The notes: generated by a model not told the origin, from the letters alone. A stretch of DNA of 32,000 nucleotides from Pseudothioglobus sp. nBUS_23 (GCF_051201565.1 NZ_CP179200.1:930001-962000); one strand, 5' to 3'. Counted from the first letter of the stretch, positions 9,692 to 23,955 are shown. Program-made: numbers and translations.

Positions 9692-9768
9692 GCGCTCGTA
9701 GCTCAGCTGGATAGAGTGTCGGCCTCCGAAGCCGAATGTCGGGTGTTCGAATCACCTCGAGCGCACCA
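9692..9768 (+). tRNA. tRNA-Arg (anticodon CCG), copy 1
   Basis: Hand-folded cloverleaf: acceptor GCGCTCG/CGAGCGC, D stem GCTC/GAGT, anticodon stem TCGGC/GCCGA, loop CTCCGAA, T stem GGGTG/CACCT with TTCGAAT loop, encoded CCA. Confidence 0.9.
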
Positions 9769-9834
9769 AATTTTCTACATATACCATAAGGCTTTCAGGG
9801 CTTTGCCCTAATCCAAATCAATCCTCCAAACGAC

Positions 9835-9860
9835 GAATTTCGTGCAAATTTCGTGCACTT
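9835..9860 (+). repeat. Left copy of 26-bp perfect direct repeat (2 x AATTTCGTGCA); candidate att or arm-type integrase site
   Basis: gaatttcgtgcaaatttcgtgcactt is identical to 23734..23759; lies 14 nt upstream of the integrase ATG. Confidence 0.8.
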
Positions 9861-9874
9861 AATGGAGATTTGAT

Positions 9875-10876
9875 ATGGCAAGCATACAAAAAGTAGTGAA
9901 TAAGAAGGGCGTCTCATATAGAGTTTATATCCGAAGAAAGGGATTACCCAATATTAATAAGACCTTTCCTTATAAGAAGGAAGCAAGAGACTTTATTTTA
10001 AAGATAGAGGAAAGTGAGATAAGTCACAGAGCCTTCAGCTCTAAGATGAACTTTAATACTCTTACAGGGATGTATCTAAGTAACGAGTACCTAGGGACTA
10101 AGCCGCAGATGCAAAGAAGCAGGCTGAAACACTGGCTTAATCATATGGGCGAGATGCCTATTATTGATATCCATAAAGAAGATATTTCTGCAGGCTTGGA
10201 TACGCTTCCTAAAAAGCTTAGCAATGCCACCGTTAATAAATACAAGAAGTTGGCATCCGTTGTCTTTAACTATGGAATCAGAGAGCTAGGTCTAACCGAG
10301 AACCCGACGCGATATATACGCTCTCTGCCTGAAAAGAAGGGAAGGACAAGATATTTATCAGATAATGAGAGAAAACGCCTATTTAGAGCTTGTAGGACTT
10401 CAAAATGGGAGTTGCTCTATCTACTTGTCTTAATGGCAATCACAACAGGAGCGAGGAGGGGAGAGCTACAAAGTTTGAGATGGAATGACATAGATTTTGA
10501 GAAACAAGCTGCTTATGTCAACATTTCTAAAAATGGAGAAGCTAAAGTATTGCCTTTAACGCCCGATGTTATTAATCAGCTTCAATTTTTTAATCAATAT
10601 GATAGTTCTCTAATATTTGGCTCAAAGATTACTCCATCAAAACCTTATGTCTTCTATAAACCTTGGAGGAAGGCAGTGGAAGAAGCAAATCTTGAAGACT
10701 TTAGATTCCACGATTTAAGGCACACTACAGCATCCTATTTAGCTCAAAATGGTGCAACTCTTCTTGAGATAGCAGATGTCTTAGGTCATAAACAAATAGA
10801 GGTGACAAAGCGTTATGCTCATCTCTGCATTGAGCATAAGTCGAGCCTTATAAATAGAGTGATGGGTAGTATTTAG
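9875..10876 (+). CDS. int: Tyrosine recombinase / phage-type integrase with AP2-like N-terminal arm-binding domain
   Basis: Catalytic ARRGEL (R), HDLRHT (HxxR), LGHKQIEVTKRYAH (Y); N-terminal KKGVSYRVYIRRKG; GGAG Shine-Dalgarno 7 nt upstream. Confidence 0.9.
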   Translation: MASIQKVVNKKGVSYRVYIRRKGLPNINKTFPYKKEARDFILKIEESEISHRAFSSKMNFNTLTGMYLSNEYLGTKPQMQRSRLKHWLNHMGEMPIIDIHKEDISAGLDTLPKKLSNATVNKYKKLASVVFNYGIRELGLTENPTRYIRSLPEKKGRTRYLSDNERKRLFRACRTSKWELLYLLVLMAITTGARRGELQSLRWNDIDFEKQAAYVNISKNGEAKVLPLTPDVINQLQFFNQYDSSLIFGSKITPSKPYVFYKPWRKAVEEANLEDFRFHDLRHTTASYLAQNGATLLEIADVLGHKQIEVTKRYAHLCIEHKSSLINRVMGSI

Positions 10877-10924
10877 TATCAGAATAAACTACAATGTTTT
10901 TATACGTATAAATTAATATTTTAA

Positions 10925-12058
10925 ATGGAAGAATGGGAAAATTTTAATTCTCCTGATGAGTGGGAAGAATATTTTGTAAGACAAAAAATACGAAGCAAAA
11001 GGATTCTTAAACCAATTATCGCAAGCAATGAGGAGTTTCAGGGGGAATGGCAAGATTATGTCACCAAATGGCTTGGTGAGCAAATGCTTTACAATGGTGA
11101 TATTGAAGATTTTATAAAAACTGAGATTCATAGCGAAAGAACTGGGATTTTAATCCTCTTCCTAAAGATGCTCATTAAAGACTTTAGTCAAAAAGAACTT
11201 AAATTTTCAGATTTACAAAAAACCTCTGATGCAGATATTTATTTTGAACTAGCACTTGCATTAGCGGATATTAAATATCTATCTAGAAAATCATTAAATG
11301 ATGATGATGTAACTAGGGAAGTTATTGAAGAGGCTACTCGGCTCACATCGAATTATTCTAGACCAATTGAAACCCAAATTGCTGGAAAAAAGTATTCTGA
11401 CTCAAGAATGCTAATTTATCTAGATGATATAGATGCTGCATTGAGTATTTATTTAGAATCTGAAATTAGACATAGTGGAATTGACCTGTTATTCATTACG
11501 CTTTATGCCGACCAAGAAATCATCGCTTATATAGACGCAGCAGGAAAATCCAAATACTTTAAAGATGAACATTCTATGAAAAGCTTATTTAACTCAGATT
11601 TTTCAACCTCATTAGAAAGGGAGGAGGAATCAAAACTTCGAGCTGAAAAAGTATTTAGTAATAATAGTTTTGGAAGTTACAAATATATTGCATTATGGAT
11701 TATTTCTACTGTAATTGTATTATTAATAGCTACAAGCTTGGAGGTAAATGGAATCCTACCTGATGCCTATGGAATTGGGTCTTTATTTCCTATGTTTATC
11801 TTATATATTGTAGTAAGCTTTGTTCTTGGTTCTAATGCTCAAAAGAAACTGGATAATCCTAAAAAATATTTTCCAACATTAACGATGATTAGAAATATGG
11901 AGAATTTTTATTTTGCTATTAGACAAAAAAAACAAATGCTATGGAAAAGGGATGTAAAAAAAGAACTAGCTTTGTTGACAGATGCTGGTGCAGTTATGCC
12001 TGAGGGAATAATGAAAATAATTGCAGATATGGACAAAAGAGACAAAAGGTGGTTTTAA
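10925..12058 (+). CDS. Hypothetical protein: ~250-aa acidic cytoplasmic domain, 2 TM helices, basic C-terminal tail
   Basis: Long ORF; TM segments YIALWIISTVIVLLIATSL and IGSLFPMFILYIVVSFVLG; no motif I recognise. Confidence 0.6.
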   Translation: MEEWENFNSPDEWEEYFVRQKIRSKRILKPIIASNEEFQGEWQDYVTKWLGEQMLYNGDIEDFIKTEIHSERTGILILFLKMLIKDFSQKELKFSDLQKTSDADIYFELALALADIKYLSRKSLNDDDVTREVIEEATRLTSNYSRPIETQIAGKKYSDSRMLIYLDDIDAALSIYLESEIRHSGIDLLFITLYADQEIIAYIDAAGKSKYFKDEHSMKSLFNSDFSTSLEREEESKLRAEKVFSNNSFGSYKYIALWIISTVIVLLIATSLEVNGILPDAYGIGSLFPMFILYIVVSFVLGSNAQKKLDNPKKYFPTLTMIRNMENFYFAIRQKKQMLWKRDVKKELALLTDAGAVMPEGIMKIIADMDKRDKRWF

Positions 12059-12095
12059 AAAACCCTATTCTAAAAAGTTTTCAGGGCTTTAGCAC

Positions 12096-12123
12096 TTGAC
12101 TTTTAAGCTAAATAATATATGAT
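12096..12123 (+). promoter_or_regulatory. Candidate sigma70 promoter for 12228..12982 gene pair
   Basis: TTGACT-16 nt-TATGAT in the 169-bp gap after the 377-aa ORF. Confidence 0.35.
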
Positions 12124-12227
12124 TTAAGTGTAAGAAATAAAAGATTTGTTCACTCAAAGAACTAGGCGGTTGACCTCTATTGTACGCCTTGGGATTTTCC
12201 CTTAAGTACTCAAAAAAGGAGACAGCA

Positions 12228-12740
12228 ATGTCATACCAAAACCAATATAATAAAGACCACTTAGATATCATCATAGGTCCACCTGGACAGGAAAGACTCA
12301 TCGACTCCCTTTATCGTTGTGCTGAAAAGCATAATATGACTATTGATGAAGCCTGGTCAAAGCACGTAGAAAATAGAGCTGATAATCTTATGAAGCCTTT
12401 TTTAAGCTTTGATAGTTTTAGCGATATCTTTACCGCTTTTCTAGGAGAGGAGATTTATGTTCAGGATTACTTTTTAAGTCACTACTATGCTTTTTCTGCC
12501 AATGGGATGCTAATGGCTAGAATCAAAAATCCTGAGGATAGACAAAAATATACAGCACCAGCTCTTAATTTTCAGGCTAAGAACTTGCTTGATGTTAATG
12601 GCAATCCAATCAATATAAGAAGATTTGATTCCGACAGGAGGAAACAATTCCAAGAATTATTTATGCTTATATTTAATGCGAGTTGGGCGTATGTGACTAT
12701 TTCATATGATTATATGTCCATAAAAAAGGGGGCTAAATAA
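12228..12740 (+). CDS. Hypothetical cytoplasmic protein (170 aa)
   Basis: ATG preceded by AAGGAG Shine-Dalgarno (aaaaaggagacagcaATG); the TTG at 12180 in the track is less likely; stop overlaps next start (TAATG). Confidence 0.6.
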   Translation: MSYQNQYNKDHLDIIIGPPGQERLIDSLYRCAEKHNMTIDEAWSKHVENRADNLMKPFLSFDSFSDIFTAFLGEEIYVQDYFLSHYYAFSANGMLMARIKNPEDRQKYTAPALNFQAKNLLDVNGNPINIRRFDSDRRKQFQELFMLIFNASWAYVTISYDYMSIKKGAK

Positions 12741-12982
12741 TGCAAATTGATAAAAATACTCAAGCAGCTTTTTATTTTTATTCAGAGATGGTTAAAGATA
12801 GTCGTGGTTCACGTCCACGTGGTGCAGATGCTGAGTGGTTTGTTTCTTTAACTGAATCTGAAAGACAGGCTGAGATTCAGAGACACATCGATAGCGTTAA
12901 TGAGATGACTGAGTTTCTAGAAGCCGAATACAATGCTGATATTAAATACTTAAAGTCGTTTGGCGATTTTTTGAAAGAATAA
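12740..12982 (+). CDS. Hypothetical small acidic protein (80 aa), translationally coupled to upstream ORF
   Basis: TAATG overlap; no recognised motif. Confidence 0.55.
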   Translation: MQIDKNTQAAFYFYSEMVKDSRGSRPRGADAEWFVSLTESERQAEIQRHIDSVNEMTEFLEAEYNADIKYLKSFGDFLKE

Positions 12983-13054
12983 ACTCTGCATAATGATTAT
13001 GTGAATTGATACAAATAGGTATATTAAATTGTATTTACTTATTAATTGAATTTA

Positions 13055-13480
13055 ATGGATAAATATAACTTAAGTCGCTTCATAGAGGCTCAAGAGACAA
13101 CCTATGAGGGTGCTATGTTGGAGCTTGCTCGGGGCAGAAAAGAGAGTCATTGGGTCTGGTATGTCTTTCCTCAAATCGAGGGACTTGGTAAATCAGATAC
13201 AGCCAAATTTTACTCGATTAAAACTTTAGAGGAGGGCAGGGCTTATCTTGAGCATCCTGTGCTAGGTCCAAGACTCTTTGAGGCTTGCGAAATACTGCTT
13301 AGCCTTAAAGATGCTTCAATGAATAAAGTTATGGGATTTCCAGATGATTTGAAGCTTCTATCCTCAATGACCTTGTTTGAGTATATATTGGATGAAAGTT
13401 CTATCTTTACTAATATTATTGAGGCATATTTTGATGATGAGCGAGATGAGAATACATTAGAGATTATTGATGTTTCGTGA
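13055..13480 (+). CDS. DUF1810 family protein
   Basis: L.RFI.AQ...Y..A..EL..G.K.SHWVWYVFPQIEGLGKS matches the DUF1810 core; ATG at 13055 preferred over TTG at 13046. Confidence 0.7.
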   Translation: MDKYNLSRFIEAQETTYEGAMLELARGRKESHWVWYVFPQIEGLGKSDTAKFYSIKTLEEGRAYLEHPVLGPRLFEACEILLSLKDASMNKVMGFPDDLKLLSSMTLFEYILDESSIFTNIIEAYFDDERDENTLEIIDVS

Positions 13481-13790: not shown

Positions 13791-13806
13791 ATAAATTTGG
13801 TAACTA

Positions 13807-14001
13807 ATGAAACGACTACTACTACTTTTCTGTCTAACTTCTTTAAGCGTATCAGCCAGTCAAGAACAAATGATGTCAACTATCAATAATATAGCTGAAA
13901 TGACTCAAGAAGAGTATTTGAAAGAAATACTTCAAGCCACGGTATGCAGATGGGAATTAACTGAGGAGGAAAGATTATTTATCGAAAGCTCTTACTTCTA
14001 G
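13807..14001 (+). CDS. Small secreted hypothetical protein
   Basis: Signal peptide MKRLLLLFCLTSLSVSAS; first ORF of the dense array. Confidence 0.5.
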   Translation: MKRLLLLFCLTSLSVSASQEQMMSTINNIAEMTQEEYLKEILQATVCRWELTEEERLFIESSYF

Positions 14002-14135
14002 TTATTTTTTGCTCTCAATCAGTCTTTGCTGACTTAGACCAAGCTATTGCCTATGCTGAAGCAGGTGATGTTAGAAATGGACAAATAGAACTTTATAACA
14101 TTAGCCAAAGAGCACTGGAAGGACAACCCAAGTCG

Positions 14136-14405
14136 ATGTGTGAGTTTGGCACAATGTATAAGAAAGAAGGCTACTGGATTGTTCAGAGTGACAAAGATGC
14201 TTCTGACTGGTGGCTTAAATCAGCAGAAATGGGGTATGCCCCTTGCCAGTTTAATATTGGTGCTGCTTATCTTATTGGTTCAGGCATTGAAAAAGACTTA
14301 TCAAAAGCAAAATACTGGCTTCAACGAGCAATAGATAGCACCTATGAGGAGTTTAGTGAGTCAGCCAAAGTTCTTTATGCAATCCACGAACTCGATAAAT
14401 ACTAA
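14136..14405 (+). CDS. Sel1-like repeat (SLR) protein; frame open back to 13965 and encodes a signal peptide with no canonical start
   Basis: SLR consensus ...A..W..KSAEMGYAPCQFNIGAAYLIGSGIEKDLSKAKYWLQRA; upstream in-frame RKLLLLVIFCSQSVFA/DLDQAIAYAEAGD. Confidence 0.6.
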   Translation: MCEFGTMYKKEGYWIVQSDKDASDWWLKSAEMGYAPCQFNIGAAYLIGSGIEKDLSKAKYWLQRAIDSTYEEFSESAKVLYAIHELDKY

Positions 14406-14587
14406 TGCTAATTCCTATCTTAATTTTTAAGCTATATTTAACTGTTGTTAATTCAATTATTTATGGATTTAGTACTGTTTTGGGCTTATTACTGTTTTCT
14501 ATTGCTGTAAGCAATGCAGATGTGAATCAACATCAAATCTATTGTGAAAAATCAGCTATAGAAGAAGAGGTTTGTGAATCAAGATAA
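14405..14587 (+). CDS. Small hydrophobic protein, family A (member 1)
   Basis: TAATG coupling; paralog of 14603 and 15543 ORFs (hydrophobic N-terminus, YCE.S....C tail). Confidence 0.65.
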   Translation: MLIPILIFKLYLTVVNSIIYGFSTVLGLLLFSIAVSNADVNQHQIYCEKSAIEEEVCESR

Positions 14588-14602
14588 CTCATCATTAGAA
14601 TA

Positions 14603-14788
14603 ATGCATATTCCTGTATTAATCTTACAGTGGTTGGTTTCTATAGCTGATGCAATTATTTATGCAGTTGTTAGCTTCATTGGCATAATCATAGTGGTTAT
14701 CGCTTTTGCTATGGCAGATGGAGATGATTACTGGGCAGAAGGAGGAATGCCACTTCCTGGTGAATCTAAAATTGAATCAACAGACTAA
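14603..14788 (+). CDS. Small hydrophobic protein, family A (member 2)
   Basis: WLVSIADAIIYAVVSF compared with WLVSIAEAIILSVMSF in 15543 ORF. Confidence 0.65.
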   Translation: MHIPVLILQWLVSIADAIIYAVVSFIGIIIVVIAFAMADGDDYWAEGGMPLPGESKIESTD

Positions 14789-14791
14789 CAA

Positions 14792-15004
14792 ATGAATTTA
14801 GATAACCTTTCAGGAGTGCTCTTTATATATTTAGTTTTAGGCTTACCAATTATGACAATAATTGGTGTCATTTTAATCCCTCGTTTTTATTCAAATGAAA
14901 AGTACAAGAATATGTTCAGAGCATTAAGATTGTTTTTTATTATTGTGCTGATTCCTCTTAGCTTTTATATATCTGGAAGTTTGTTAAGTTTGTTGTACGA
15001 TTAG
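14792..15004 (+). CDS. Small 2-TM membrane protein
   Basis: Two hydrophobic helices separated by a basic loop RFYSNEKYKNMFRALR. Confidence 0.55.
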   Translation: MNLDNLSGVLFIYLVLGLPIMTIIGVILIPRFYSNEKYKNMFRALRLFFIIVLIPLSFYISGSLLSLLYD

Positions 15005-15043
15005 ATGATATGAAAAAACTACTACTATCAAAACTTTATAAAG

Positions 15044-15307
15044 ATGGATAGCATTAGACTTTTTAAAATAATTAAGGTTGGACTTATTTTAGTTTTTCTA
15101 TTTATTATTACTTCTTCTTTTTGGGACTGGTTGGCTGAAGATTCAAAAGAAATAAAAGAACTTATAAAGCAGGGTTATCTTCCTTCTGACTATCAGCACG
15201 AAGATATATTTAAATTATGTAACCCTGAGACGGATGAAGAAAAGGTAGCTCTTGAAAAAGCTCCTGATTATTTTTGGACTTGTATGATAAGAGGTGGCTG
15301 GACCTGA
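15044..15307 (+). CDS. Membrane-anchored small protein with GYL..D...C...C domain (family C-related)
   Basis: ELIKQGYLPSDYQHEDIFKLCNPE aligns with QLIERGYLSEDFTTIEYLNFCENIE of 15760 ORF. Confidence 0.6.
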   Translation: MDSIRLFKIIKVGLILVFLFIITSSFWDWLAEDSKEIKELIKQGYLPSDYQHEDIFKLCNPETDEEKVALEKAPDYFWTCMIRGGWT

Positions 15308-15321
15308 TATGAATAACCAAA

Positions 15322-15546
15322 ATGATTAACTTTCTCAATTCAGTTCCGCTTTATCCAGGATGGCTATTTATCTTCTTTTCAGGGTTATTTTTCATAAAAC
15401 TCACAAAGCATCGTAAGCTAGGAAAAGTTATCCTAATTATATTTTCTATCCCTATTTTGTTTATTGTTGCCTCAACGATTTTTGGGATATGGCTAATGGA
15501 GACTAATCCAGGAGTTTTTCCAGGTGGGGAGGCATATACACCTTGA
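15322..15546 (+). CDS. Small 2-TM membrane protein, family B (member 1)
   Basis: HRKLGKVILIIFSIPILFIVA compared with DRRKLGISYLIIFSIPIILFLIA in 18908 ORF. Confidence 0.65.
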   Translation: MINFLNSVPLYPGWLFIFFSGLFFIKLTKHRKLGKVILIIFSIPILFIVASTIFGIWLMETNPGVFPGGEAYTP

Positions 15547-15758
15547 TTACAATCATAACGACAGCTTTTGTCTGGTTAGTATCTATAGCAGAAGCAATAA
15601 TTCTTTCTGTTATGAGTTTCTTTGCAGTCATACTTATGCTCTGGACTTTTACTATGGCTGGAATCTCTGCAGATGAGAATGGACAGCAACTCTATTGTGA
15701 AACTTCTAAAACTGGAGTTGAGAACTGCTTTATGAGGGAATGGAGCATAGTAGATTAA
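15543..15758 (+). CDS. Small hydrophobic protein, family A (member 3); TTG start
   Basis: TTGA overlap with upstream stop; the conserved family region lies upstream of the first ATG, which supports the TTG start. Confidence 0.6.
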   Translation: MITIITTAFVWLVSIAEAIILSVMSFFAVILMLWTFTMAGISADENGQQLYCETSKTGVENCFMREWSIVD

Positions 15759-15759
15759 T

Positions 15760-16056
15760 ATGAACAATGCCTGGACAGAAGAACAAACAAAGGAATCTGT
15801 AAGGAGGCAAAAGAAAGCCCTATTAATCGCAATTCCAAGCATTCCTATAATATTGTTTGCTTTAATGGCAGCATTTGGCTACATTCTCCACCATTGGTTT
15901 ATGGAACCCCCAGAATATCATTTACAAATAGAGCAATTAATTGAAAGAGGATATCTAAGTGAAGATTTCACTACTATTGAATATTTAAACTTCTGTGAAA
16001 ATATAGAGCAGAGCTTATATGACACTTATGATTATGTCTGCCGATGGATTGATTAA
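15760..16056 (+). CDS. Membrane-anchored WTEEQTK-family protein (family C)
   Basis: MNNAWTEEQTKESVRRQKKAL + TM; paralog of 7510 ORF outside the island. Confidence 0.65.
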   Translation: MNNAWTEEQTKESVRRQKKALLIAIPSIPIILFALMAAFGYILHHWFMEPPEYHLQIEQLIERGYLSEDFTTIEYLNFCENIEQSLYDTYDYVCRWID

Positions 16057-16067
16057 AGAAACAAAGT

Positions 16068-16095
16068 TTGACTTTAGTTCATTCTGAAATATAAT
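16068..16095 (+). promoter_or_regulatory. Near-consensus sigma70 promoter placed for a leaderless or very short-leader transcript of 16102 ORF
   Basis: TTGACT-16 nt-TATAAT; -10 ends 6 nt before the ATG at 16102. Confidence 0.4.
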
Positions 16096-16101
16096 CGATG
16101 T

Positions 16102-16527
16102 ATGAAAAAACTACTATTAATCTTGTTACTATCTCTTGGCTTAATTAATTCATCAAATGCTGATTCCTACAAGCCCGGCATTAAAGAATATATGGAGTTT
16201 AAATTCACAGAAGCAATTGAAATACTAAGTCCTCTTGCTGCTGAAGGTGATGATGAAGCTCAGCTATACTTGGGAGTGATATATAGAAATGGTGATGGGG
16301 TTGAGGTAGACAACTTTAAGGCATTTAAGTTCTTCAAACAATCAGCTGAACAAGGTAATGCCTGGTCCCAAAAACATTTAGCTTGGATGTATATTGATGG
16401 AAAAGGGGTTCTTAAAGACTATAAGCAAGCTAAATATTGGTTTCAAATGGCATACGCTAATGATGACCCCTGGATAAGGGAAGATGCAAAAGCTGCTTGG
16501 GATGAGTTAGAACTTTGGAAGTATTGA
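16102..16527 (+). CDS. Secreted Sel1-like repeat protein
   Basis: Signal peptide MKKLLLILLLSLGLINSSNA; AEGDDEAQLYLGVIYRNGDGVEVDNFKAFKFFKQSAEQGNAWSQKHLAWMY.DGKGVLKDYKQAKYWF. Confidence 0.8.
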   Translation: MKKLLLILLLSLGLINSSNADSYKPGIKEYMEFKFTEAIEILSPLAAEGDDEAQLYLGVIYRNGDGVEVDNFKAFKFFKQSAEQGNAWSQKHLAWMYIDGKGVLKDYKQAKYWFQMAYANDDPWIREDAKAAWDELELWKY

Positions 16528-16528
16528 T

Positions 16529-16924
16529 TTGAAGAAAATACTCCTACTAATATTATTATTTTCTTTTTCATCGCACAGTTTAGCAAAGGTGGGTGACAAC
16601 TACTTTTGTCTGATGAAACAATTTATGGATATTACTCCAGACAAAATATATGAAAAGCCATTAGAAGAATTTACTTTTCGAATGGAAGCAGACAAGATTG
16701 TATTTACTGTAGAAAAGGGTTATTTTGCTGGATTTGGTGAATATTTTGAATTGGAGATGTCTGATTATAGGGAATTTGGTTCTGACGAATATCCTAGAGA
16801 ATCTTTCTTTCTCAACAGAGATGATTGGAGAGTGATTAGTGTCTATGATGAAGGTCACTTTAACTATACCTATGTTGAAGGACCTCTTACAAAAACAATG
16901 ATAGCAAGATGCGGCAAGTATTAG
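16529..16924 (+). CDS. Secreted hypothetical protein with N- and C-proximal Cys pair; TTG start
   Basis: Signal peptide (M)KKILLLILLFSFSSHSLA; NYFC....IARCGKY. Confidence 0.6.
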   Translation: MKKILLLILLFSFSSHSLAKVGDNYFCLMKQFMDITPDKIYEKPLEEFTFRMEADKIVFTVEKGYFAGFGEYFELEMSDYREFGSDEYPRESFFLNRDDWRVISVYDEGHFNYTYVEGPLTKTMIARCGKY

Positions 16925-16940
16925 ACAAATTGAATTCAAA

Positions 16941-17387
16941 ATGAAAAAACTACTCCTATTGCTCTTCTCTTTAATGCTTTCCTTTAATTCTTTTGGTGAG
17001 GAGGATTTATCTGAGTATAAACTTCTTGGTCAAAAAACTGTCGTTGCTTTCAAGTGTGCCAATATCGTTACTCATCACGATTACTCTGAAGAAGTTGCTG
17101 TTGAGTGGAATCGTTTATTCAACATTGGAATGAACAGTGGAACAAAGTTGTTAGAGGCAATGAGAAGTGGAATTATTACTCGTGATTTTATGAATAAGCA
17201 TATTCCATATAGGTTGGTGTTAAGAATATCTGATAGTGGAGGCTTATTTAGTAACGACTTCATTCTTGGCGGACTTAATGAAGAGATGTTGTTGGAAGTT
17301 TATGAAAAAGTTGGCGATGCTTCAATAAGAGATACAACATCTAGAAGTATGTATTTAAAGAATAACTGTGCTTTAGTAGGAAATTAA
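16941..17387 (+). CDS. Secreted hypothetical protein with Cys pair
   Basis: Signal peptide MKKLLLLLFSLMLSFNSFG; VAFKC....KNNCALVGN. Confidence 0.6.
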   Translation: MKKLLLLLFSLMLSFNSFGEEDLSEYKLLGQKTVVAFKCANIVTHHDYSEEVAVEWNRLFNIGMNSGTKLLEAMRSGIITRDFMNKHIPYRLVLRISDSGGLFSNDFILGGLNEEMLLEVYEKVGDASIRDTTSRSMYLKNNCALVGN

Positions 17388-17391
17388 TTTT

Positions 17392-17991
17392 ATGAAGAAA
17401 CTTCTCCTCTCTCTATTTGCCAGTTTAGTTCTTATTTCTAACTATAGTAATGCTGAGATAACATCTTTTGATGAACGCTTTACTCTGCTATGTGAAATTG
17501 AAGATTCAACTGGGTTTAATTGGTCTAATGGTAATTGGTATCAAGCCAATTTTAAAGCAGGGCAAAAATATATTATAAAAAAACAGGATGATGAAAAAAG
17601 CGAAGATGCTGATGATTATGACTATGCCAAAGTAAAGAATATGTTCTGTTCTTATGGTCAGGAGGCAGAGTCCGATAATGCCAGTTACATTACTAGAGAT
17701 GGTTGTTATATGATTAAAGAATTTGGTGAAGAATCAACCGCATTTAACTCCAAATTATGCCGTGAAAGGTGGAGTAAAGATAGTCAAGGCTCTTTGAAAT
17801 TAGATAAGGTAGATTGCTCCGTGTGGGGTAACCCTGAAGTGAGGTTTAAACCAAATGGATTGATTCACGTCCACAATCTTGGTAGTTTAGAATCAAGTCC
17901 TAAAGGTGTTATAGATAATGGTGTCACCATAATTCCTCCTGACTACAAAGACTCTATGTATATAGCCTTTGGAAGATGTTCAACTATATGA
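17392..17991 (+). CDS. Secreted hypothetical Cys-rich protein
   Basis: Signal peptide MKKLLLSLFASLVLISNYSNA; FTLLCE....FGRCSTI plus internal Cys residues. Confidence 0.6.
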   Translation: MKKLLLSLFASLVLISNYSNAEITSFDERFTLLCEIEDSTGFNWSNGNWYQANFKAGQKYIIKKQDDEKSEDADDYDYAKVKNMFCSYGQEAESDNASYITRDGCYMIKEFGEESTAFNSKLCRERWSKDSQGSLKLDKVDCSVWGNPEVRFKPNGLIHVHNLGSLESSPKGVIDNGVTIIPPDYKDSMYIAFGRCSTI

Positions 17992-18425
17992 AAAAACTAC
18001 TCCTAATCTTATTTATCTCTCTTGGCATAGTTGGTTGTTCTGAAACTTCACCCCAACAAGTAAAGTTTGATGATGAGTCTTACCAATGGAAGAAGTGGGA
18101 TTGCTTCGCTTATGGTTATGCTGGAGAGTTCATCTTGTCTATTGGTTATATCCCTGAACTTGAACAAGATGGCTATTATGCTGGTAAGTTATTCTTGAAA
18201 GATGCTGAATCTCCAATCGATACAATCTACCAAATGAGAGGTGTTCAACACGAATGGAATTGGGAAGACTATAAAATTAAAATTGACTCTGATGGTACTG
18301 GAAGATATTGGGATTTCTCAGATGACGACGAAGGTGAAATGGTAAATTCTTCTGAAGTTTATGAGTGTACATCTTCGGGTTTTGTGAGTTTTAGTAAGTC
18401 CTTTGATAACTTCTTTTCCTACTAA
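17988..18425 (+). CDS. Hypothetical lipoprotein
   Basis: ATGA overlap; MKKLLLILFISLGIVGCSE lipobox; start at 17988 preferred over 17976. Confidence 0.6.
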   Translation: MKKLLLILFISLGIVGCSETSPQQVKFDDESYQWKKWDCFAYGYAGEFILSIGYIPELEQDGYYAGKLFLKDAESPIDTIYQMRGVQHEWNWEDYKIKIDSDGTGRYWDFSDDDEGEMVNSSEVYECTSSGFVSFSKSFDNFFSY

Positions 18426-18427
18426 TT

Positions 18428-18724
18428 ATGCGTAAGTATCTAATTACTTTTCTTTTAAGTCAAGACGATAAGTTTTACCACGAGGATACAGTTGGTATTG
18501 AGATGGAAGCTAATGACCTGAAAGAACTATTTAATCTTATTGGTGATGTTGAAACTGACGAAATAACTTCATCTAGAATAGTACGAGCAGTAGAAGGAAG
18601 TGGATTGGTATTTGACTCATATGCACCTATAGTGATTGGTGAGTTTAATGAAGATGGGATTCCAATAATTGTTTGGGAAGATAAGGATTACAGATTCAAT
18701 CACGAATCTAGTAATTTACATTAA
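18428..18724 (+). CDS. Small acidic cytoplasmic hypothetical protein
   Basis: ORF only; no signal peptide or TM helix. Confidence 0.45.
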   Translation: MRKYLITFLLSQDDKFYHEDTVGIEMEANDLKELFNLIGDVETDEITSSRIVRAVEGSGLVFDSYAPIVIGEFNEDGIPIIVWEDKDYRFNHESSNLH

Positions 18725-18727: not shown

Positions 18728-18907
18728 ATGCTAAGAATAATAATTTTAGGTCTTTGGATTTTCTGTCTAATTAATGGGATTCAGAGGCTGCGTTCTAATC
18801 GTCAAAAGTCAGGAATAGTCCTTGTATCAATCTTCTTACTTTTTGCTTTAGTTTTGTTTATATCCTTTGCAGCTTTTGACCCAAGGTTTATCAACTATGA
18901 GAACTAA
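18728..18907 (+). CDS. Small 2-TM membrane protein, family B (member 2); 59 aa, absent from the ORF track
   Basis: My translation: MLRIIILGLWIFCLINGIQRLRSNRQKSGIVLVSIFLLFALVLFISFAAFDPRFINYEN. Same TM-RxxRK.G-TM layout as 15322 and 18908; exactly fills the gap between neighbours. Confidence 0.55.
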   Translation: MLRIIILGLWIFCLINGIQRLRSNRQKSGIVLVSIFLLFALVLFISFAAFDPRFINYEN

Positions 18908-19135
18908 ATGCTTTTAATAATCTTCTTAGTCCTTTGGGCATTCACTCTTTTTTATGGCATCAGCCTAATAAGAACTGATAGACGTAAATTAGGTATTTCA
19001 TATTTAATTATTTTCTCTATTCCTATAATTCTTTTTCTAATTGCTGATTGGTTTATTGATTTCTCTTATCTTGATTGTATGTTTAGAGGTACCTCGAATG
19101 CTGCAGAAAGGATGGAGTACTGTAGGTCACTTTAA
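18908..19135 (+). CDS. Small 2-TM membrane protein, family B (member 3)
   Basis: RRKLGISYLIIFSIPIILFLIA paralogy with 15322 ORF. Confidence 0.65.
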   Translation: MLLIIFLVLWAFTLFYGISLIRTDRRKLGISYLIIFSIPIILFLIADWFIDFSYLDCMFRGTSNAAERMEYCRSL

Positions 19136-19139
19136 TACT

Positions 19140-19727
19140 ATGACAATAAGTGAAGAACAGATAGTTATATTGGCTCAAGAATACCTCTCTAAACTGCAAA
19201 GAGCTAATGAAGTAGAATTTGCCACTAGAAAGCCGGGGGTTGGCCAAGACTACTATGATTTTATGGATGGTCTAGAATCTCAGTGCTCTCATCTAGCAGA
19301 TGACTTTAGAATTGGTTATCAAAACAAAGAAGTTGAGGCAGACATAGAGAAAGCACTTAAATCCGCCAATATTAAAGTTGATAGAAACTCTAATGAATAC
19401 AAACTTCTTGTAAGTAAGTTCTTATTTGCAGCTACAGAGGCTTGCTATGAAAGATTGAGTATGTATAAAGGTGATTTTGACTATAAATTAGAAACAACCA
19501 AACTAGCTGCTGAAGAACCACTTATTAAGAAGCAAGCTAAAACACTAGCAATTCAAGAAGAGATTAACAAGATTGCAAAAGAAATAATGGATACATATCC
19601 AACAACACCAAAGTATAACCTTGCCGAGGAAATTGCCGACTTACTTGAAAAAGATAAGATGCATCTAAATCCACCAAAATTTGAAACTATTCGTAAGAAT
19701 TATCTTTCTAAATACCCAAACTTTTAA
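19140..19727 (+). CDS. Hypothetical cytoplasmic helical protein (195 aa)
   Basis: ATG at 19140 is 4 nt after the previous stop; the track's upstream extension from 19041 overlaps the 18908 ORF. Confidence 0.55.
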   Translation: MTISEEQIVILAQEYLSKLQRANEVEFATRKPGVGQDYYDFMDGLESQCSHLADDFRIGYQNKEVEADIEKALKSANIKVDRNSNEYKLLVSKFLFAATEACYERLSMYKGDFDYKLETTKLAAEEPLIKKQAKTLAIQEEINKIAKEIMDTYPTTPKYNLAEEIADLLEKDKMHLNPPKFETIRKNYLSKYPNF

Positions 19728-19732
19728 CAAGA

Positions 19733-19801: not shown

Positions 19802-19887
19802 ATCCAATTACTGCAAAACATCACTTTACTGAGATAATTTCCTTACTGATTGCATAACGCATCAGACAATTTAGGGAGAGTTAAAGT

Positions 19888-21369
19888 ATGACCATAGAAA
19901 ACAAAAAAAGCACAATAAAGACAGCAGACTCTATGCTAATTGAGTACGCAAAAAAAGAGTGTTGGTTGTTTTGTGATAATCAAAATGAGCCTTATGCAAA
20001 AATTCTAGTTGATAGACATATCGAAACTTGGGGGATACACTCCCAGGGTTTTGGAGACTTGCTGCGAAGTTGGTATTTTAAAAAGACTAAAAGAGGAGTT
20101 AATCAAAGCCAATTAGACAGTGCAATAATGACCATTTCAGCAATTGCTAATTATGATGGCCATCGGGAAGATGTTTATCTTCGTGTTGCTCAAATAGAAG
20201 AAAAAATATACATAGATATCTGTGATAAAAACTGGAGTGTTATCGAGGTGACAAATAGAGGATGGTCTGTCATTGATATTGCTCCTGTAGCTTTTACTAG
20301 AACCAATAATATGAAGCCACTTCCTTATCCAAAAGGCGGAAATGGCGTGAAGTATTTACTAAGGCACATAAATATACAAGAAGAAGAATTGCCTTTACTG
20401 ACTGGATGGCTTTTAATGGCTTTACAGGCTGGAGAGGGGGCTTATCCTTCTTTATTGATAAATGGGCCAGCTGGCTCTGGAAAATCAACAGCTTGCCGAA
20501 TGATTAGGTCTTTAATAGACCCAAATAAAGCAGATTTATTGACTCAACCAAGTATCAGTGATTTAAGAATTGTTGGAATGAATAACCACATACTTGCTTT
20601 TGATAACATTAGTAAAGTTAGTCCAACTTTTAGTGATGCTATTTGTAAAATTTCAACGGGTGATAATCAATCTATTAGAAGGCTATATACAACCAATGGA
20701 GAGATGACAGTTTCAATTAAGAAGCCAACTATTTTGAATGGCATTCCCGAGCTTGCAAAACGAAGTGATTTGGCAAGTAGAAGTCTAAAGCTGACACTAC
20801 AAAAAGTTAAGCACAGAAAAACAGAAAAAGAGGCTTGGGCTGATTTTAATGAAGATGCACCAAGTATTTTAAAGGGCTTACTTACTGGGCTTAGTAGGGC
20901 TTTAGCAAACCTAGAGCATACTGAAATAAATGATATGACTCGAATGGCCGATTTCTGTATGTGGGCTACAGCTGCACATACTGCTTATGGTTGGGATAAA
21001 ACCACCTTTATTAACGCCTATGCAAAGAATGTAAAAGAATCTCACATTGACTCGTTGGAATCCTCCCCTTTTGCTTCTTCTATAGTTAAGATGTGTGAAG
21101 ATGGCAGCTTCTTTCACGGAAGGCCATTAGAGCTTTTAGAGGAAATTGAATCCCAATATTCTTCTACAAAAATTACCCACTCAGTGACTTGGGTTAAGAC
21201 TGCTAAAGGTGTTATTGAACAACTCGATAGAAATGAGGAGTCGCTTGAATCTATTGGTATTTATTATCAAAAGTATAAAGATAGAACAAATAAGACATTT
21301 GTTAAAGTAGGTGACTTAGAGTTTATAAACTCATCTAGTGAGCCAACAACCCCTATTTACGATTTTTAA
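19888..21369 (+). CDS. P-loop NTPase, SF3-helicase / element replication-initiator-like protein
   Basis: Walker A INGPAGSGKST, Walker B-like HILAFDNIS, ~190-aa N-terminal domain; GGGAGAG Shine-Dalgarno; followed by iteron region. Confidence 0.6.
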   Translation: MTIENKKSTIKTADSMLIEYAKKECWLFCDNQNEPYAKILVDRHIETWGIHSQGFGDLLRSWYFKKTKRGVNQSQLDSAIMTISAIANYDGHREDVYLRVAQIEEKIYIDICDKNWSVIEVTNRGWSVIDIAPVAFTRTNNMKPLPYPKGGNGVKYLLRHINIQEEELPLLTGWLLMALQAGEGAYPSLLINGPAGSGKSTACRMIRSLIDPNKADLLTQPSISDLRIVGMNNHILAFDNISKVSPTFSDAICKISTGDNQSIRRLYTTNGEMTVSIKKPTILNGIPELAKRSDLASRSLKLTLQKVKHRKTEKEAWADFNEDAPSILKGLLTGLSRALANLEHTEINDMTRMADFCMWATAAHTAYGWDKTTFINAYAKNVKESHIDSLESSPFASSIVKMCEDGSFFHGRPLELLEEIESQYSSTKITHSVTWVKTAKGVIEQLDRNEESLESIGIYYQKYKDRTNKTFVKVGDLEFINSSSEPTTPIYDF

Positions 21370-21380
21370 TAAATAAAAAT

Positions 21381-21531
21381 TATGCAAGTTGTGTACTTAT
21401 GTGCATAGCTTGCATAGCCAAAATAGCTTAAATATTTAAAATAAATAAATACTAATGCACCAAAAACGCACCCTGAAGCACTTTAATAAAAATAGAGAGT
21501 TTGGTATGTTTTTGCCTATGCAAGCTATGCA
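21381..21531. promoter_or_regulatory. Iteron - AT-rich - inverted-iteron region; putative replication origin of the island
   Basis: tgcatagc x2 (21402-21418) and its reverse complement ctatgcaagctatgca (21516-21531) form a 16-bp perfect inverted repeat flanking ~95 bp of AT-rich DNA; extra tatgcaag at 21381. Confidence 0.45.
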
Positions 21532-21746
21532 GTATTTATTCTATTAATAAGCACTACTCTTAAGGTTTTATTTTGGATTACTTTGGCTGAATAATATAAG
21601 AACTTTAGCAAGTGAAGAAAGCCTTTACTAAGGCTCTAAGGACTCCATATTCATTATTTTAGAGCACTTAAATTACTCAGAAAGTATTGGCCTTATTTAG
21701 TACAAAAAGGAGTTCAAATTAAGTCTTATTCAGGTATAGTTTAATT

Positions 21747-22112
21747 ATGAAAAAAATACTACTTTGTGGCATATTCTTAGGTTTAAGTTTAAGTTCTTAT
21801 GCCGGGGGTTATGTTTGTACTTCCCCAAGTTTTTTTGATGATAGTACTACGATTAATGTGTATCAAAAAACTAGTAATGGTTACTTAGATAAAGAAAGAG
21901 GTGATATGTTTAATGTGAGAGAAAATGAACATCTTTTGTCTATGTCGTACAACACTCTTGATGAGGATTATGGTGCAGGTATTATGGCAGTAGTTATAAA
22001 TAAATCTGAAATGAAATTTATAAAGTCGATGACATTTTTTTTAAAGCCATACGACCCTCCTACAGTATATGACTCAGATTATAGAACTGGGGAATGTGTT
22101 TATGTTGATTAA
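21747..22112 (+). CDS. Secreted hypothetical protein with N- and C-proximal Cys pair
   Basis: Signal peptide MKKILLCGIFLGLSLSSYAG; GYVCTS....TGECVYVD. Confidence 0.6.
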   Translation: MKKILLCGIFLGLSLSSYAGGYVCTSPSFFDDSTTINVYQKTSNGYLDKERGDMFNVRENEHLLSMSYNTLDEDYGAGIMAVVINKSEMKFIKSMTFFLKPYDPPTVYDSDYRTGECVYVD

Positions 22113-22116
22113 CAAT

Positions 22117-22605
22117 ATGAAAAAATATGTCTACGTATTTGCTCTTTTAATAAGCTTACTTGGCTCTTCATTTGTCCACTCTTCAGAAGCATTACTCACA
22201 AAAGGATACAATAAAGCACTTGATGGAAATTATGGTGAGGCATATAGAATACTTCAGCCTTTAGCTTCTCAGGGCTATATTGAAGCACAATTCAACCTAG
22301 GTATGATGTTTCAAAATGGAGGAAATGGACTTCAAAGGAACTATTCAAGTTCGGCATATTGGTTTAACCAAGCAGCACTTCAGGGAGACCAAAATTCACA
22401 ATTTGAGTTGTCTGGTATTTATTACAGGGGGTTAGGAGTTAAAAAAGACCTAAGTCAAGCAAAATATTGGGCTAAATTAGCTTCGCAAGGAAGTAATCCA
22501 ACAATTGCGAGCCGCTCAAGAGAATTCCTAAAGAATCAAATGTCTTGGTGGGAGAAACAAAAGTTAGGAGCCTCTACAATCTTTGGTATTTTTACTGGAA
22601 ATTAA
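22117..22605 (+). CDS. Secreted Sel1-like repeat protein
   Basis: MKKYVYVFALLISLLGSSFVHS signal; ASQGYIEAQFNLGMMFQNG...AALQGDQNSQFELSGIYYRGLGVKKDLSQAKYWAKLA. Confidence 0.8.
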   Translation: MKKYVYVFALLISLLGSSFVHSSEALLTKGYNKALDGNYGEAYRILQPLASQGYIEAQFNLGMMFQNGGNGLQRNYSSSAYWFNQAALQGDQNSQFELSGIYYRGLGVKKDLSQAKYWAKLASQGSNPTIASRSREFLKNQMSWWEKQKLGASTIFGIFTGN

Positions 22606-22618
22606 ACTACTATATCTT

Positions 22619-23215
22619 ATGATTAATTTTATAAACAAGTGGTCAAAAAGGTTTGCAGTGATTTGGCTCATAGGATTTATAGGTATTTTGGCAATTACCT
22701 ATGCAGATTCTATTCAGAACAGCAAAGCTAAATACAGTTGGTGGTCCCCAAAATTTGCAGATATAAACCTTTTCTTACCTTATTCAGTTCAAAAGTCTTT
22801 AAGCTCCAACAATAGAGCTGCGTGTATAGCAAAAACAAACTTCCCTTTTGAACGCACAGTTATCGGTTATAGAAAACATACACTCGAGGGAACATTTTTG
22901 AACTGTGAGCCTGGAAAAAGTCATAGGGCAACAGAGTATTTGTTTATTTTATTAGTACCCTTTATTGGTCTTAACTATGTCTTACCTTGGCTTACAAGAG
23001 TGCTTGAAGGCGCAGGTAAAAATTATAAATCTAGTGCAAAAAAAGCCAAGGTCAATACAGAAAAGAATTACCTAATAGCTTATAAAGAAGTTGAGAGTGG
23101 GAAAATTAAAAGTCCAGAATTATGGGCCAAAGCATTTGCTGAAACTGAAGGCGATGAGGTCAAACAAAAAGCTCTGTATGTAGAATTAAGAACAAAGCAG
23201 CTTGATGATAATTAA
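22619..23215 (+). CDS. Membrane protein with C-terminal EVESG...WAKA...GDE..K.KALY motif
   Basis: ATG at 22619; 2 TM helices; C-terminal motif shared with next ORF. Confidence 0.55.
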   Translation: MINFINKWSKRFAVIWLIGFIGILAITYADSIQNSKAKYSWWSPKFADINLFLPYSVQKSLSSNNRAACIAKTNFPFERTVIGYRKHTLEGTFLNCEPGKSHRATEYLFILLVPFIGLNYVLPWLTRVLEGAGKNYKSSAKKAKVNTEKNYLIAYKEVESGKIKSPELWAKAFAETEGDEVKQKALYVELRTKQLDDN

Positions 23216-23239
23216 GTAGAATTTTGATATAGTTGAAAT

Positions 23240-23647
23240 ATGGGAATTAAAGACGTATTCAATCAAGCACCTTCACCTGAAGAAGAAGCATTATATAAGC
23301 AAGTTCTTGATGAAGTTGAATCAGGTGTAATGCGGAAAGGAATCTACGCTAAAGCATTAGCTGATGGTTTGGGAGATGAAGGTAAAGCACAGTCTCTTTA
23401 TATTAAATATAGAGTTCAATCTTTAGTAGATGAACAAAGATTGAAAGCTAAACAACTAGGCATAGAGCTTGCTGAAAAAGAAAGATATAGGAAGGCAACA
23501 GAAGAGGCTGAAGCGCTTAGAAAAAGAGCTGAGTTTGATGCAGAATTTGATAATTCACACGCTGGAAAACATTTTTATAAATATTGGTATGGAATTCTCT
23601 TAATTCTTGGCCTTGGTATTTTGATTTATGGTGACGTAATTTTCTAA
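23240..23647 (+). CDS. Tail-anchored protein with N-terminal EVESG...AKA...GDE motif and coiled coil
   Basis: N-terminal motif, KAKQLGIELAEKERYRKATEEAEALRKRAE coiled coil, C-terminal TM YGILLILGLGILIYG. Confidence 0.55.
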   Translation: MGIKDVFNQAPSPEEEALYKQVLDEVESGVMRKGIYAKALADGLGDEGKAQSLYIKYRVQSLVDEQRLKAKQLGIELAEKERYRKATEEAEALRKRAEFDAEFDNSHAGKHFYKYWYGILLILGLGILIYGDVIF

Positions 23648-23733
23648 ATTTCACATCTAACTCAGTTTCCCCGATTGGCTAGTGATTCAAAAGGGGTGGG
23701 GTGGGGGTCTATTTTGAGCCAATTTCGGCCTTA

Positions 23734-23759
23734 GAATTTCGTGCAAATTTCGTGCACTT
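23734..23759 (+). repeat. Right copy of 26-bp direct repeat (2 x AATTTCGTGCA)
   Basis: Identical to 9835..9860; a degenerate extra unit aatttcggcct lies at 23721. Confidence 0.8.
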
Positions 23760-23841
23760 TAGTCTCAAAACTACCTAAATATGCTTATAATCGCTCTTGC
23801 ACTAGATACGGCGTTTGTAATGATTAATTTGTATAAACCCC

Positions 23842-23869
23842 TTGGTATTGCTGGTCTGCGGCGTATATA
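23842..23869 (+). promoter_or_regulatory. Candidate promoter of tRNA-Arg copy 2
   Basis: TTGGTA-16 nt-TATATA ending about 10 nt before the tRNA. Confidence 0.4.
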
Positions 23870-23878
23870 GCAAACATT

Positions 23879-23955
23879 GCGCTCGTAGCTCAGCTGGATA
23901 GAGTGTCGGTCTCCGAAGCCGAATGTCGGGTGTTCGAATCACCTCGAGCGCACCA
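23879..23955 (+). tRNA. tRNA-Arg (anticodon CCG), copy 2
   Basis: 76/77 identical to copy 1; the single C-to-T change turns the C31-G39 pair into U-G, so the cloverleaf is preserved. Confidence 0.9.

Follow-up and report, generated by a model that had tools for sequence, protein, structure and literature searches.

In a tycheposon a site-specific integrase faces inward from one end, a small replication module may stand next to the integrase or at the other end, and cargo is carried as well (10.1101/2020.12.28.424599). The integrase is usually of a tycheposon-specific tyrosine recombinase lineage, integration is at a tRNA gene through an attachment site of about 40 nt and leaves the element flanked by a full-length and a partial tRNA, and the cargo is for niche adaptation or phage interference (10.1101/2020.12.28.424599). 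A whole gene and a piece of it are also what the Islander rule demands, an intact tRNA gene (tDNA) plus a displaced fragment; 3760 3' fragments and 159 5' fragments are on record, and matches within a tRNA gene of full length are discarded (PMC4383910). What, then, of an island that lies between two complete tRNA genes? This is the arrangement in the 1.79-Mb genome of Pseudothioglobus sp. nBUS_23, a marine gammaproteobacterium of the SUP05 clade, where two full copies of tRNA-Arg(CCG) bound an integrase-bearing element within the 32,000-nt stretch analysed here (NZ_CP179200.1:930001-962000; below, the window).

On our assessment it is quite probable that the element is a 14,187-bp integrative, self-replicating, non-conjugative island, inserted site-specifically in the host's single tRNA-Arg(CCG) gene, and that its own attachment site, attP, holds a complete tRNA together with upstream sequence of its own. 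An integrase-bearing mobile island had already been proposed in an earlier, sequence-only reading of this DNA, and is strongly supported: the element is a real, recently mobile, integrative and replicative island.

The single tRNA site and its duplication

The two tRNA-Arg(CCG) genes, both of 77 nt, lie at 9692-9768 (+) and 23879-23955 (+), with Rfam scores of 65.9 and 63.6 bits, respectively; ARAGORN and Rfam find no third tRNA in the window. As the sequence-only reading had it, and as ARAGORN, Rfam and alignment bear out, the near-identical copies differ by a single base, nucleotide 32 of the gene or standard position 31 (9723 C vs 23910 T), by which the C31-G39 pair of the left copy becomes U31-G39 in the right copy. 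The cloverleaf is identical in both, with folding energies of -28.3 (left) and -26.6 kcal/mol (right). Perfect identity extends 7 nt upstream (AAACATT) and, again as claimed, ends right after CCA, with 0 nt of identity beyond. The resulting 84-nt block, AAACATT plus the complete tRNA, forms the C31 allele in attL (9685-9768, +) and the U31 allele in attR (23872-23955, +). The imperfect similarity claimed farther upstream stood in part: besides AAACATT, an 8-mer, CTGCGGCG, recurs farther upstream of each copy, and the two tRNA regions are 92% identical across 106 nt, but the supposed promoter-like character is weak, no sigma-70-type site being called. Upstream of the attL block the sequence is identical to that of the empty-site contigs described below, and downstream it is element-specific. 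At attR host sequence follows directly after CCA, and the tRNA is preceded by an element-derived 5' flank (23760-23871, +) that contains TTATAAT, TTGGTA-16 nt-TATATA and CTGCGGCG.

The two copies lie 14,187 nt from each other; the stretch between them, 14,110 nt long, is 88% coding, and GC content is 33-36% inside the island vs 37-41% in its flanks. All coding-type sequence between the copies is on the + strand, with the tyrosine integrase gene (int, 9875-10876) first and about 27 further open reading frames (ORFs) behind it, much as had been read from the DNA.

What did the site look like before the element arrived? A search for empty sites had been set as a check beforehand, and single-tRNA alleles were indeed found. 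A DUF4396 protein is encoded just left of the island, and 23 metagenome contigs encode exactly this protein; in seven of the ten listed (L001, L002, L003, L007, L008, L009, L010) one tRNA-Arg(CCG) lies between the DUF4396 and cytochrome b561 genes, within about 175 bp. These contigs belong to the same population, with flanks 97-98% identical. Aligned with L001, the window flanks run collinearly at 97.2-98.4% identity, and only the repeated ~100 nt is covered by both alignment blocks; the empty site matches the sequence 5' of the left copy and 3' of the right copy, with no match 3' of the left or 5' of the right. Because all seven uninterrupted alleles have a single tRNA, the ancestral site was single, and the element itself must carry a tRNA copy.

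The sequence-only reading had preferred an ancestor in which two tRNA-Arg(CCG) genes stood in tandem, with the element integrating in their spacer. The completeness of both copies, and outer flanks that are not identical to each other, agree with such an ancestor. The seven single-tRNA alleles between the same genes refute it. Moreover, the two arms of the element, P' and P, travel with it, being joined around one tRNA in two related contigs (L019, L038), and they also flank a tRNA-Arg elsewhere, in other genome contexts (L037/L051, L078), and tRNA-Asn (L029, L082). A tandem ancestor has next to no probability left. The diverged flanks were misleading as its sign, since their difference reflects host origin of the one and element origin of the other, and not age. 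The alternative offered at the same time, an attP with a full tRNA copy, is the one that holds, as the inner flanks are element DNA and the joined junctions of L019 and L038 exist.

In L019 and L038 the order is right-arm block, iterons, ~120 nt, complete tRNA-Arg, ~65 nt, iterons and int, with the iteron pairs separated by 288-289 nt. By its sequence this layout is that of two element ends joined around one tRNA, an attP-type junction. L019 is 10,387 nt long, with a 19-nt terminal overlap and an integrase gene 92% identical to that of the window; closing the overlap rebuilds one Sel1 ORF (signal peptide plus repeats) in frame, and as assembled L019 is a 10,368-bp circle or tandem unit. A further attL at the same host site is L048 (90% identity). 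The contigs L004-6, L049 and L011 all end at the same tRNA position, and we infer that this shared breakpoint is a branch of the assembly graph, in a population with several junction types. L011, a Logan contig from SRR31779810, is an exact match to the right flank of the island, and the run may be that of the nBUS_23 isolate.

Judged from these contigs, natural populations are polymorphic at this site: empty and occupied alleles coexist, and their flanks are 97-98% identical. Might the island be old, fixed and decayed all the same, and no longer mobile? One could point to the lack of a recognisable excisionase and to the base difference between the repeats. Against this are the coexistence of empty and occupied alleles with flanks so alike, the intact int and rep genes, the circular or tandem relative L019 with its 92% identical int, and a cargo gene that is 98.9% identical in another context. 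We regard a decayed island as very unlikely.

Since attP carries a whole tRNA, integration yields two full genes, the left with the host promoter and the right with an element-derived 5' flank. Empty alleles carry C31, as does the left copy, and among the junctions examined U31 is found only in the right copy of the window. Compared with the empty alleles, the promoter side and 5' part of the left copy are host sequence, and what lies 3' of the crossover, wherever this falls, is element sequence. Only if the U31 allele arrived with the element would strand exchange have taken place 3' of tRNA position 31. Codon supply was considered as a reason for carrying tRNA-Arg(CCG) and rejected: the frequency of CGG is equally low in the island and in the host (0.97 vs 0.73 per 1000 codons, 4 codons each), and codon supply thus fails to explain the tRNA.

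Integrase, attachment arms and replication module

The inward-facing int gene (9875-10876, +; 333 aa) begins 106 nt after the left tRNA and reads into the element. Its product, a Xer-like tyrosine recombinase (Phage_integrase E 1e-30, phrog_1 E 2e-60), carries, besides core-binding and catalytic domains, an N-terminal motif of arm-binding type (SYRVYIRRKG...KTF..KKEA); the N-terminus gives no Pfam arm-domain match, and the motif SYRV.IRR..K.F..KKEA is present. Homologs number more than 5,000 at E<1e-20. The closest 120, of 215-387 aa, are from marine metagenomes and Thioglobaceae genomes, nearly all of them on metagenome contigs and mostly on short ones, and the four among them with an organism name are from Pseudothioglobus or Candidatus (Ca.) Thioglobus.

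A comparison was made of five integrases whose tRNA target is known and whose iterons are known as well. In the core-binding domain, identity is 74-86% between Arg-targeting integrases, 59% in the one Asn-Asn pair and 42-49% between Arg and Asn integrases; in the catalytic domain the corresponding values are 76-97%, 70% (again one pair) and 67-72%. From these comparisons we infer that the core-binding domain diverges with the tRNA target, as would be expected if it reads the tRNA core. Co-variation between the N-terminal domain and the iterons was considered as well and set aside as too weak, as one residue only (Y/Q/F in SYRV.IRR) tracks an iteron base (C/A/T), in three classes.

A perfect 26-nt direct repeat, GAATTTCGTGCAAATTTCGTGCACTT, which the sequence-only reading had missed, lies at 9835-9860 and 23734-23759, 67 nt past the left tRNA and 119 nt before the right tRNA. 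It contains two tandem copies of an 11-mer, AATTTCGTGCA, with 4 occurrences in the window vs 0.8 expected. In the P' arm (9769-9874, +) a conserved block, CATATACCATAAGGCTTTCAGGGCTTTGCCCTAATCC, is followed by the tandem 11-nt iterons (9836-9857), 17 nt before the int ATG, and this arm is conserved in L019, L037, L038 and L048. The P-arm block (23648-23759, no strand assigned) reads TAAATTTCACATCT..CAGTTTCCCCGATTG.CTAG..CAAAAGGGGTGGGGTGGGGGTCT.TTTTGAGCCAATTTCGGCCTTAG and ends in the same iterons, again two (23735-23756). About 100 nt right after the last ORF (TAAATTTCACATCT...CAAAAGGGGTGGGGTGGGGGTCT...CAATTTCGGCCTTAG, then iterons) are 82-97% conserved in 12 other contigs that otherwise differ in sequence, a tRNA-Asn element among them. 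A structured RNA in the P-arm block was considered and rejected, with no Rfam match and no covariation on either strand; the block may instead be read as a protein-binding DNA array, for the integrase (Int), a recombination directionality factor or host factors.

The iterons stand at the same distances in both arms, are alike within an element and differ between Int lineages. They are unchanged in L019, whose Rep is a PrimPol-D5_N-DUF5906 protein. Their position, their variation with lineage and their constancy under a swap of Rep fit arm-type Int sites rather than iterons of an origin of replication (ori).

For the wider search, a 23-mer from the arm repeat was used to scan public collections, and the contexts of near-identical proteins were added. 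The exact 23-mer, GAATTTCGTGCAAATTTCGTGCA (27 nt with ATTA, as in L019), was also found in unrelated high-GC genomes. The contigs concerned (L021-L028, L030, L031, L033, L035, L036, L041-L046, L050, L052, L053) come from the peat metagenomes Ga0181520/Ga0181517, the Fibrobacteraceae metagenome-assembled genome (MAG) CAZYYB01 and other sources. In most of them (Fibrobacteraceae MAG, peat) the 23-mer is part of a low-GC, multi-copy intergenic repeat of ~250 nt, with further TTTCGTGA/C copies, often at contig ends and with ordinary genes alongside; L021 and L023 have only the 23-mer in common. The match to the marine elements may be coincidence or may reflect a common binding protein. Within the island itself, a 24/31-nt P'-like match (TATTCTAAAAAGTTTTCAGGGCTTTAGCACT) at window positions 12066-12096, right after the ORF for a 377-aa protein, was considered as an internal attachment site or old boundary and treated as chance (blastn E 0.13). 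No significant internal attachment site or tRNA remnant points to a composite or tandem origin of the 14 kb.

Does the integrase matter at all? A tRNA-carrying episome, a small plasmid, might have entered by RecA-dependent homologous recombination over the 84-100 bp of shared tRNA sequence, with a minor part for the integrase. The identity block does far exceed the core site of a tyrosine recombinase and reaches into the 5' flank (up to 100 nt in L019/L038), and the attP of L019/L038 has the host-like AATCAACT where the right copy of the window has TATATAGC, as if exchange took place upstream of the tRNA; relatives of Rep are also found on plasmids. However, an intact int lies beside the attachment site in all five elements examined (window, L019, L078, L080, L082), the core-binding domain diverges with the tRNA target, and paired iterons are kept in both arms across lineages. 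A target-tracking Int domain and kept arm iterons would be pointless under pure homologous recombination, and we consider entry of this kind quite unlikely.

The P-loop replication-type gene recognised in the sequence-only reading is rep (19888-21369, +), which encodes a 493-aa D5-type superfamily 3 (SF3) helicase and replication initiator, assigned by fold, with the Walker A motif GPAGSGKST. No Pfam family is above threshold for Rep, and there is a weak match to the P4 primase C-terminal family. Among its 192 homologs are fusions with Prim-Pol, PriCT-2 or Toprim domains. The AlphaFold model, for which 41 sequences were used (pLDDT 88, pTM 0.84), has as its best Foldseek match in the PDB the primase-helicase of SaPI5, a Staphylococcus aureus pathogenicity island (SaPI; E 4e-9, TM 0.53/0.60), and further fold matches are to the NrS-1 helicase region, the African swine fever virus PrimPol, SaPIbov1 Rep and poxvirus D5/E5. 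Relatives at 26-32% identity are found in small non-mobilizable plasmids and in a Microbacterium phage (annotated as helicase/primase).

In SaPIs the ori is an iteron array immediately 3' of rep. In the window the candidate ori (21401-21531, no strand assigned) is likewise immediately 3' of rep, with inverted iterons GTGCATAGCTTGCATAGC and GCCTATGCAAGCTATGCA around an AT-rich spacer of ~90 nt. In L073-75 rep is 82% identical in nucleotides, and the iteron arms are conserved and the spacer diverged; L014, with a 49%-identical Rep, has different repeats behind it. This co-inheritance of rep and the iteron arms supports a Rep-specific ori. The rep-ori module (19888-21531) is 2.3 kb from the right end. 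Upstream of rep is a conserved module (18728-19727, +) of two small transmembrane (TM) paralogs (18728-18907, 18908-19135) and a 195-aa all-helical protein (19140-19727), which is 91.6% identical in nucleotides to L019 despite the different Rep there. The 195-aa protein has 161 homologs, of which the two with a source name are from Ca. Thioglobus; it has no match in Pfam, NCBIfam or PADLOC, and its AlphaFold2 model (pLDDT 78) has no fold match in the PDB (best E 2.9).

The closest rep-ori cassettes sit in elements of another type. A four-gene module of ~4.3 kb (L012-L018, L073-L077) consists of a P4-type int, the gene for an unknown 250-293-aa protein, that for an HTH_17 protein, and an SF3 rep. 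Since these are elements with a P4-type int, the window element is a mosaic, into which the rep-ori cassette alone was taken. The P4-type module has a wide distribution, through Ca. Thioglobus, clam symbionts and marine metagenomes, and stands by itself or together with type I restriction-modification, HNH/SRA, trypsin-Sel1 or MORN cargo. No tRNA was found around its Rep in the DNA covered, which reached 10 kb per side at most and was often shorter on the int side.

An int gene together with a SaPI-type rep-ori core brings to mind a helper-packaged phage satellite, like the phage-inducible chromosomal islands (PICIs), P4 or the virion-encapsidated integrative mobile elements (VEIMEs), in which the G-rich P-arm block (AAAAGGGGTGGGGTGGGGGTC...) would be a cos/pac-type packaging signal. 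Related elements are 9-14 kb, the ~100-nt non-coding block is conserved across differing tRNA target, Rep and cargo, with no RNA covariation, and marine satellites without capsid genes are documented (PMC9618062). Yet terS, capsid-morphogenesis, AlpA and interference genes were looked for and not found, 2.9 million IMG/VR contigs contain nothing close to the arm 23-mer, to Int or to Rep, megablast against 50,697 phage records of GenBank gave no match, and the conserved block is placed where P-arm sites for Int, Xis or integration host factor are expected. We think a satellite unlikely. Searches of IMG/VR, GenBank phages and plasmids returned no close viral, phage or plasmid relative.

How would an island that carries its own tRNA move? 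The integrase core-binding domain would contact the tRNA core, and the N-terminal domain would bind the paired 11-nt iterons of both arms. Because the P' pair ends so close to the int ATG, Int bound there probably autoregulates int. After excision the circle would be replicated by the SF3 Rep at the inverted-iteron ori, as in SaPI-type islands, and cell-to-cell transfer would have to go by a route that is not encoded: vesicles, helper phage or transformation.

Several points weigh against the integrative island with a whole tRNA in attP, or against parts of this cycle. The attP-type junctions could stem from tandem arrays rather than circles, as there is a remnant element after the right tRNA in L078. 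U31 could be a post-integration mutation. For the iterons a role as arm sites is argued from their position and their co-variation with lineage, and identity in the Int N-terminal domain tracks overall phylogeny, not iteron identity. No excisionase, AlpA, HTH_17 or Xis-like ORF is recognised in the element, and relatives with the same Rep do carry an HTH_17 protein. A consensus promoter scan gave no sigma-70-type site upstream of either tRNA copy, which makes the right copy no more than a putatively expressed gene. Finally, no transfer route is encoded in the element and none was found in IMG/VR.

Sister elements, tRNA decay and cargo

The full-tRNA architecture is also found in L047, L049, L032 and L078 (Arg) and in L029 and L082 (Asn), and related elements are 9-14 kb. 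L047 and L049 have an unrelated 5' flank, yet a perfect, complete tRNA-Arg. Beside TTTCGTGCA iterons a full tRNA-Asn(GTT) stands at the left end in L082 (Int 60% identical) and at the right end in L029. In L080 (Int 58%) there is a tRNA-Asn 5' fragment that ends just past the anticodon, with iterons AATGTGCA/ATTTATGTGCA.

L078, from Ca. Pseudothioglobus Uisw_050_01, has an Int 74% identical to that of the window and an island of ~9 kb. Its iterons are AATTTAGTGCA in both arms, and the P pair is 122 nt upstream of a full tRNA-Arg. After this right tRNA, at 18946-19054, a remnant P' arm is joined to the last ~55 nt of an int gene, which indicates tandem accretion, with a decayed second element. 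The left tRNA copy lacks 10 nt (gagcgcacca) and is no longer called as a tRNA; in this genome the copy with the host promoter has been damaged, and at this locus the one tRNA-Arg(CCG) still intact is that with an element-derived 5' flank. The opposite is seen in L037/L051, where the element-derived tRNA copy has a degenerate 5' acceptor strand. L037 (4,664 nt) holds a 3.4-kb integrase-less unit, with a perfect tRNA-Arg and P' arm at one end, a P arm and degenerate tRNA-Arg at the other, and only a 951-aa secreted repeat protein for cargo; it is either a stranded cargo remnant or a non-autonomous derivative.

When a single-copy tRNA is duplicated, one copy becomes dispensable, and at the sister loci decay is reciprocal, so that an element can end up supplying the expressed copy of a host tRNA. 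Is this a general way of life? In every junction examined attP embeds a complete tRNA gene plus upstream sequence of its own (Arg-CCG, Asn-GTT), and one might imagine a large family whose integration duplicates the target tRNA and does not just repair it, with a redundancy that lets either copy decay. We put this forward tentatively, as a possibility that we rate below even chance. No description of a family with a full tRNA in attP was found in the literature searched, though earlier descriptions may exist.

The cargo is a set of predicted secreted and membrane proteins and of Sel1-repeat proteins: N-termini that resemble signal peptides are found in eight ORFs, about nine encode small proteins of one or two TM segments, with several paralogous pairs among them, four have Sel1 repeats and one is a DUF1810 protein. 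Behind int is the gene for the 377-aa protein (10925-12058, +), which has two predicted TM segments and no family match. There follows a near-threshold SAM-V riboswitch-like element (12155-12224, +; RF01826), which matches the model over its full length and scores 38.9 bits, where the gathering score is 41 (E 2.5e-3 over 15.6 kb). Relative to the ATG at 12228, the AAAAAGGAG tail stops 4 nt short, and AGGAG is 7 nt upstream. The next cargo ORFs (12228-13480, +) encode a 170-aa orphan (12228-12740), an 80-aa product (12740-12982) and the DUF1810 protein (13046-13480). Among 1.8 billion proteins the family of the 170-aa protein makes up only 20 representative clusters, and Pfam domains are absent from all of them; if the riboswitch is real, control of a mobile orphan gene by SAM would be out of the ordinary.

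About 16 small cargo ORFs (13807-18724, +) mostly have signal-peptide-like N-termini (MKKLLL...) or a single TM segment, and include Sel1 proteins (14136-14405, 16102-16527) and paralogous pairs. One cargo gene, at 17391-18004, is 98.9% identical in an unrelated 36-kb contig (L020), from which it follows that cargo cassettes move between contexts. Behind the ori are four ORFs (21747-23647, +), for a 121-aa secreted or lipoprotein-like product, a Sel1 protein (22069-22605), a 210-aa protein and a 135-aa protein with a C-terminal hydrophobic tail.

The sequence-only reading saw no capsid, tail, conjugation or transposase genes in the island, and searches with Pfam, PHROGs, NCBIfam and PADLOC concur, with no match to known defence systems either. 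There is no PHROG structural match, the only trace being a sub-threshold holin-like match (E 0.007) of a 75-aa TM ORF, and no ORF scanned has a relaxase, oriT, type IV secretion or coupling-protein domain. No transporter or nutrient gene is among the cargo.

The host gene upstream of the site, at window positions 6669-7451, is a fusion of Adhesin_E with a TonB_2 C-terminus, and a homolog of it is cargo in the related element L034 (146-1054), adjoining the gene for a GIY-YIG protein. Host envelope genes and element cargo thus appear, from the distribution of these homologs, to be exchanged.

Comparison with known islands

SUP05 bacteria and Pseudothioglobus rank with the most abundant gammaproteobacteria of the sea, and little is understood of the ways in which their streamlined genomes take up flexible genes. 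The locus described here is a clean example, with occupied, empty and circular (or tandem) forms in public data and with integrase, attachment arms, Rep and ori defined. If duplication of the target tRNA with decay of either copy is general, mobile elements would drive the turnover of promoters and 5' halves of single-copy tRNA genes in streamlined marine genomes, and such turnover would be invisible to island finders that depend on tDNA fragments.

The resemblance to tycheposons is considerable. Both have a streamlined marine host, a tRNA-targeting tyrosine recombinase with an inward int, a replication module near the opposite end and variable cargo between; both lack conjugation and capsid genes and have modules in common with PICI-like elements; and the tandem remnants at the tRNA in L078 match the island-accretion model proposed for tycheposons. 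The differences are that the window element has two full 77-nt tRNAs and its own 5' flank, with no partial tRNA, that its host is a gammaproteobacterium, and that Arg-CCG and Asn-GTT are outside the seven Prochlorococcus targets. Its cargo, furthermore, consists of envelope and Sel1 proteins and not of nutrient-uptake genes.

With SaPIs and other PICIs the element shares an int gene, a Rep helicase of the D5-type SF3 kind, the place of the (candidate) iteron ori directly 3' of rep, and a size of 10-15 kb. It differs in that no Stl/AlpA-type regulator, terS or capsid-remodelling gene was found and in its far larger cargo fraction, and no match to the window element in IMG/VR or among GenBank phages speaks for packaging. 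The P4-type mini-islands of Thioglobaceae have the closest rep-ori cassette (82% of nucleotides, L073-75) and similar Sel1/MORN cargo, but their integrase belongs to another family, of ~405 aa with Arm-DNA-bind_3, and they have an HTH_17 gene in addition. A lambda-type heterobivalent integrase has an N-terminal arm-binding domain and, in both P and P' arms, arm-type repeats distinct from the core. In the window element the paired repeats of both arms, which co-vary with the Int lineage, may be such sites, and the N-terminal motif may belong to such a domain. The hallmark genes of integrative conjugative or mobilizable elements and of prophages were not found in the window element.

Like the canonical tDNA islands, the element has a tyrosine integrase inside and tRNA direct repeats at both ends in the same orientation. 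Unlike them, its 'fragment' is a second full-length tRNA gene. As the Islander tDNA filter drops full-length matches, islands like that of the window are excluded by design, and because tools that look for a tRNA plus a fragment reject full-length duplicates, the class would be systematically under-counted. In kind, then, the element is ordinary, a tRNA-targeting integrase island that is tycheposon-like or PICI-like; what is unusual is the complete tRNA in attP, which its relatives have too, and the reciprocal decay of the copies.

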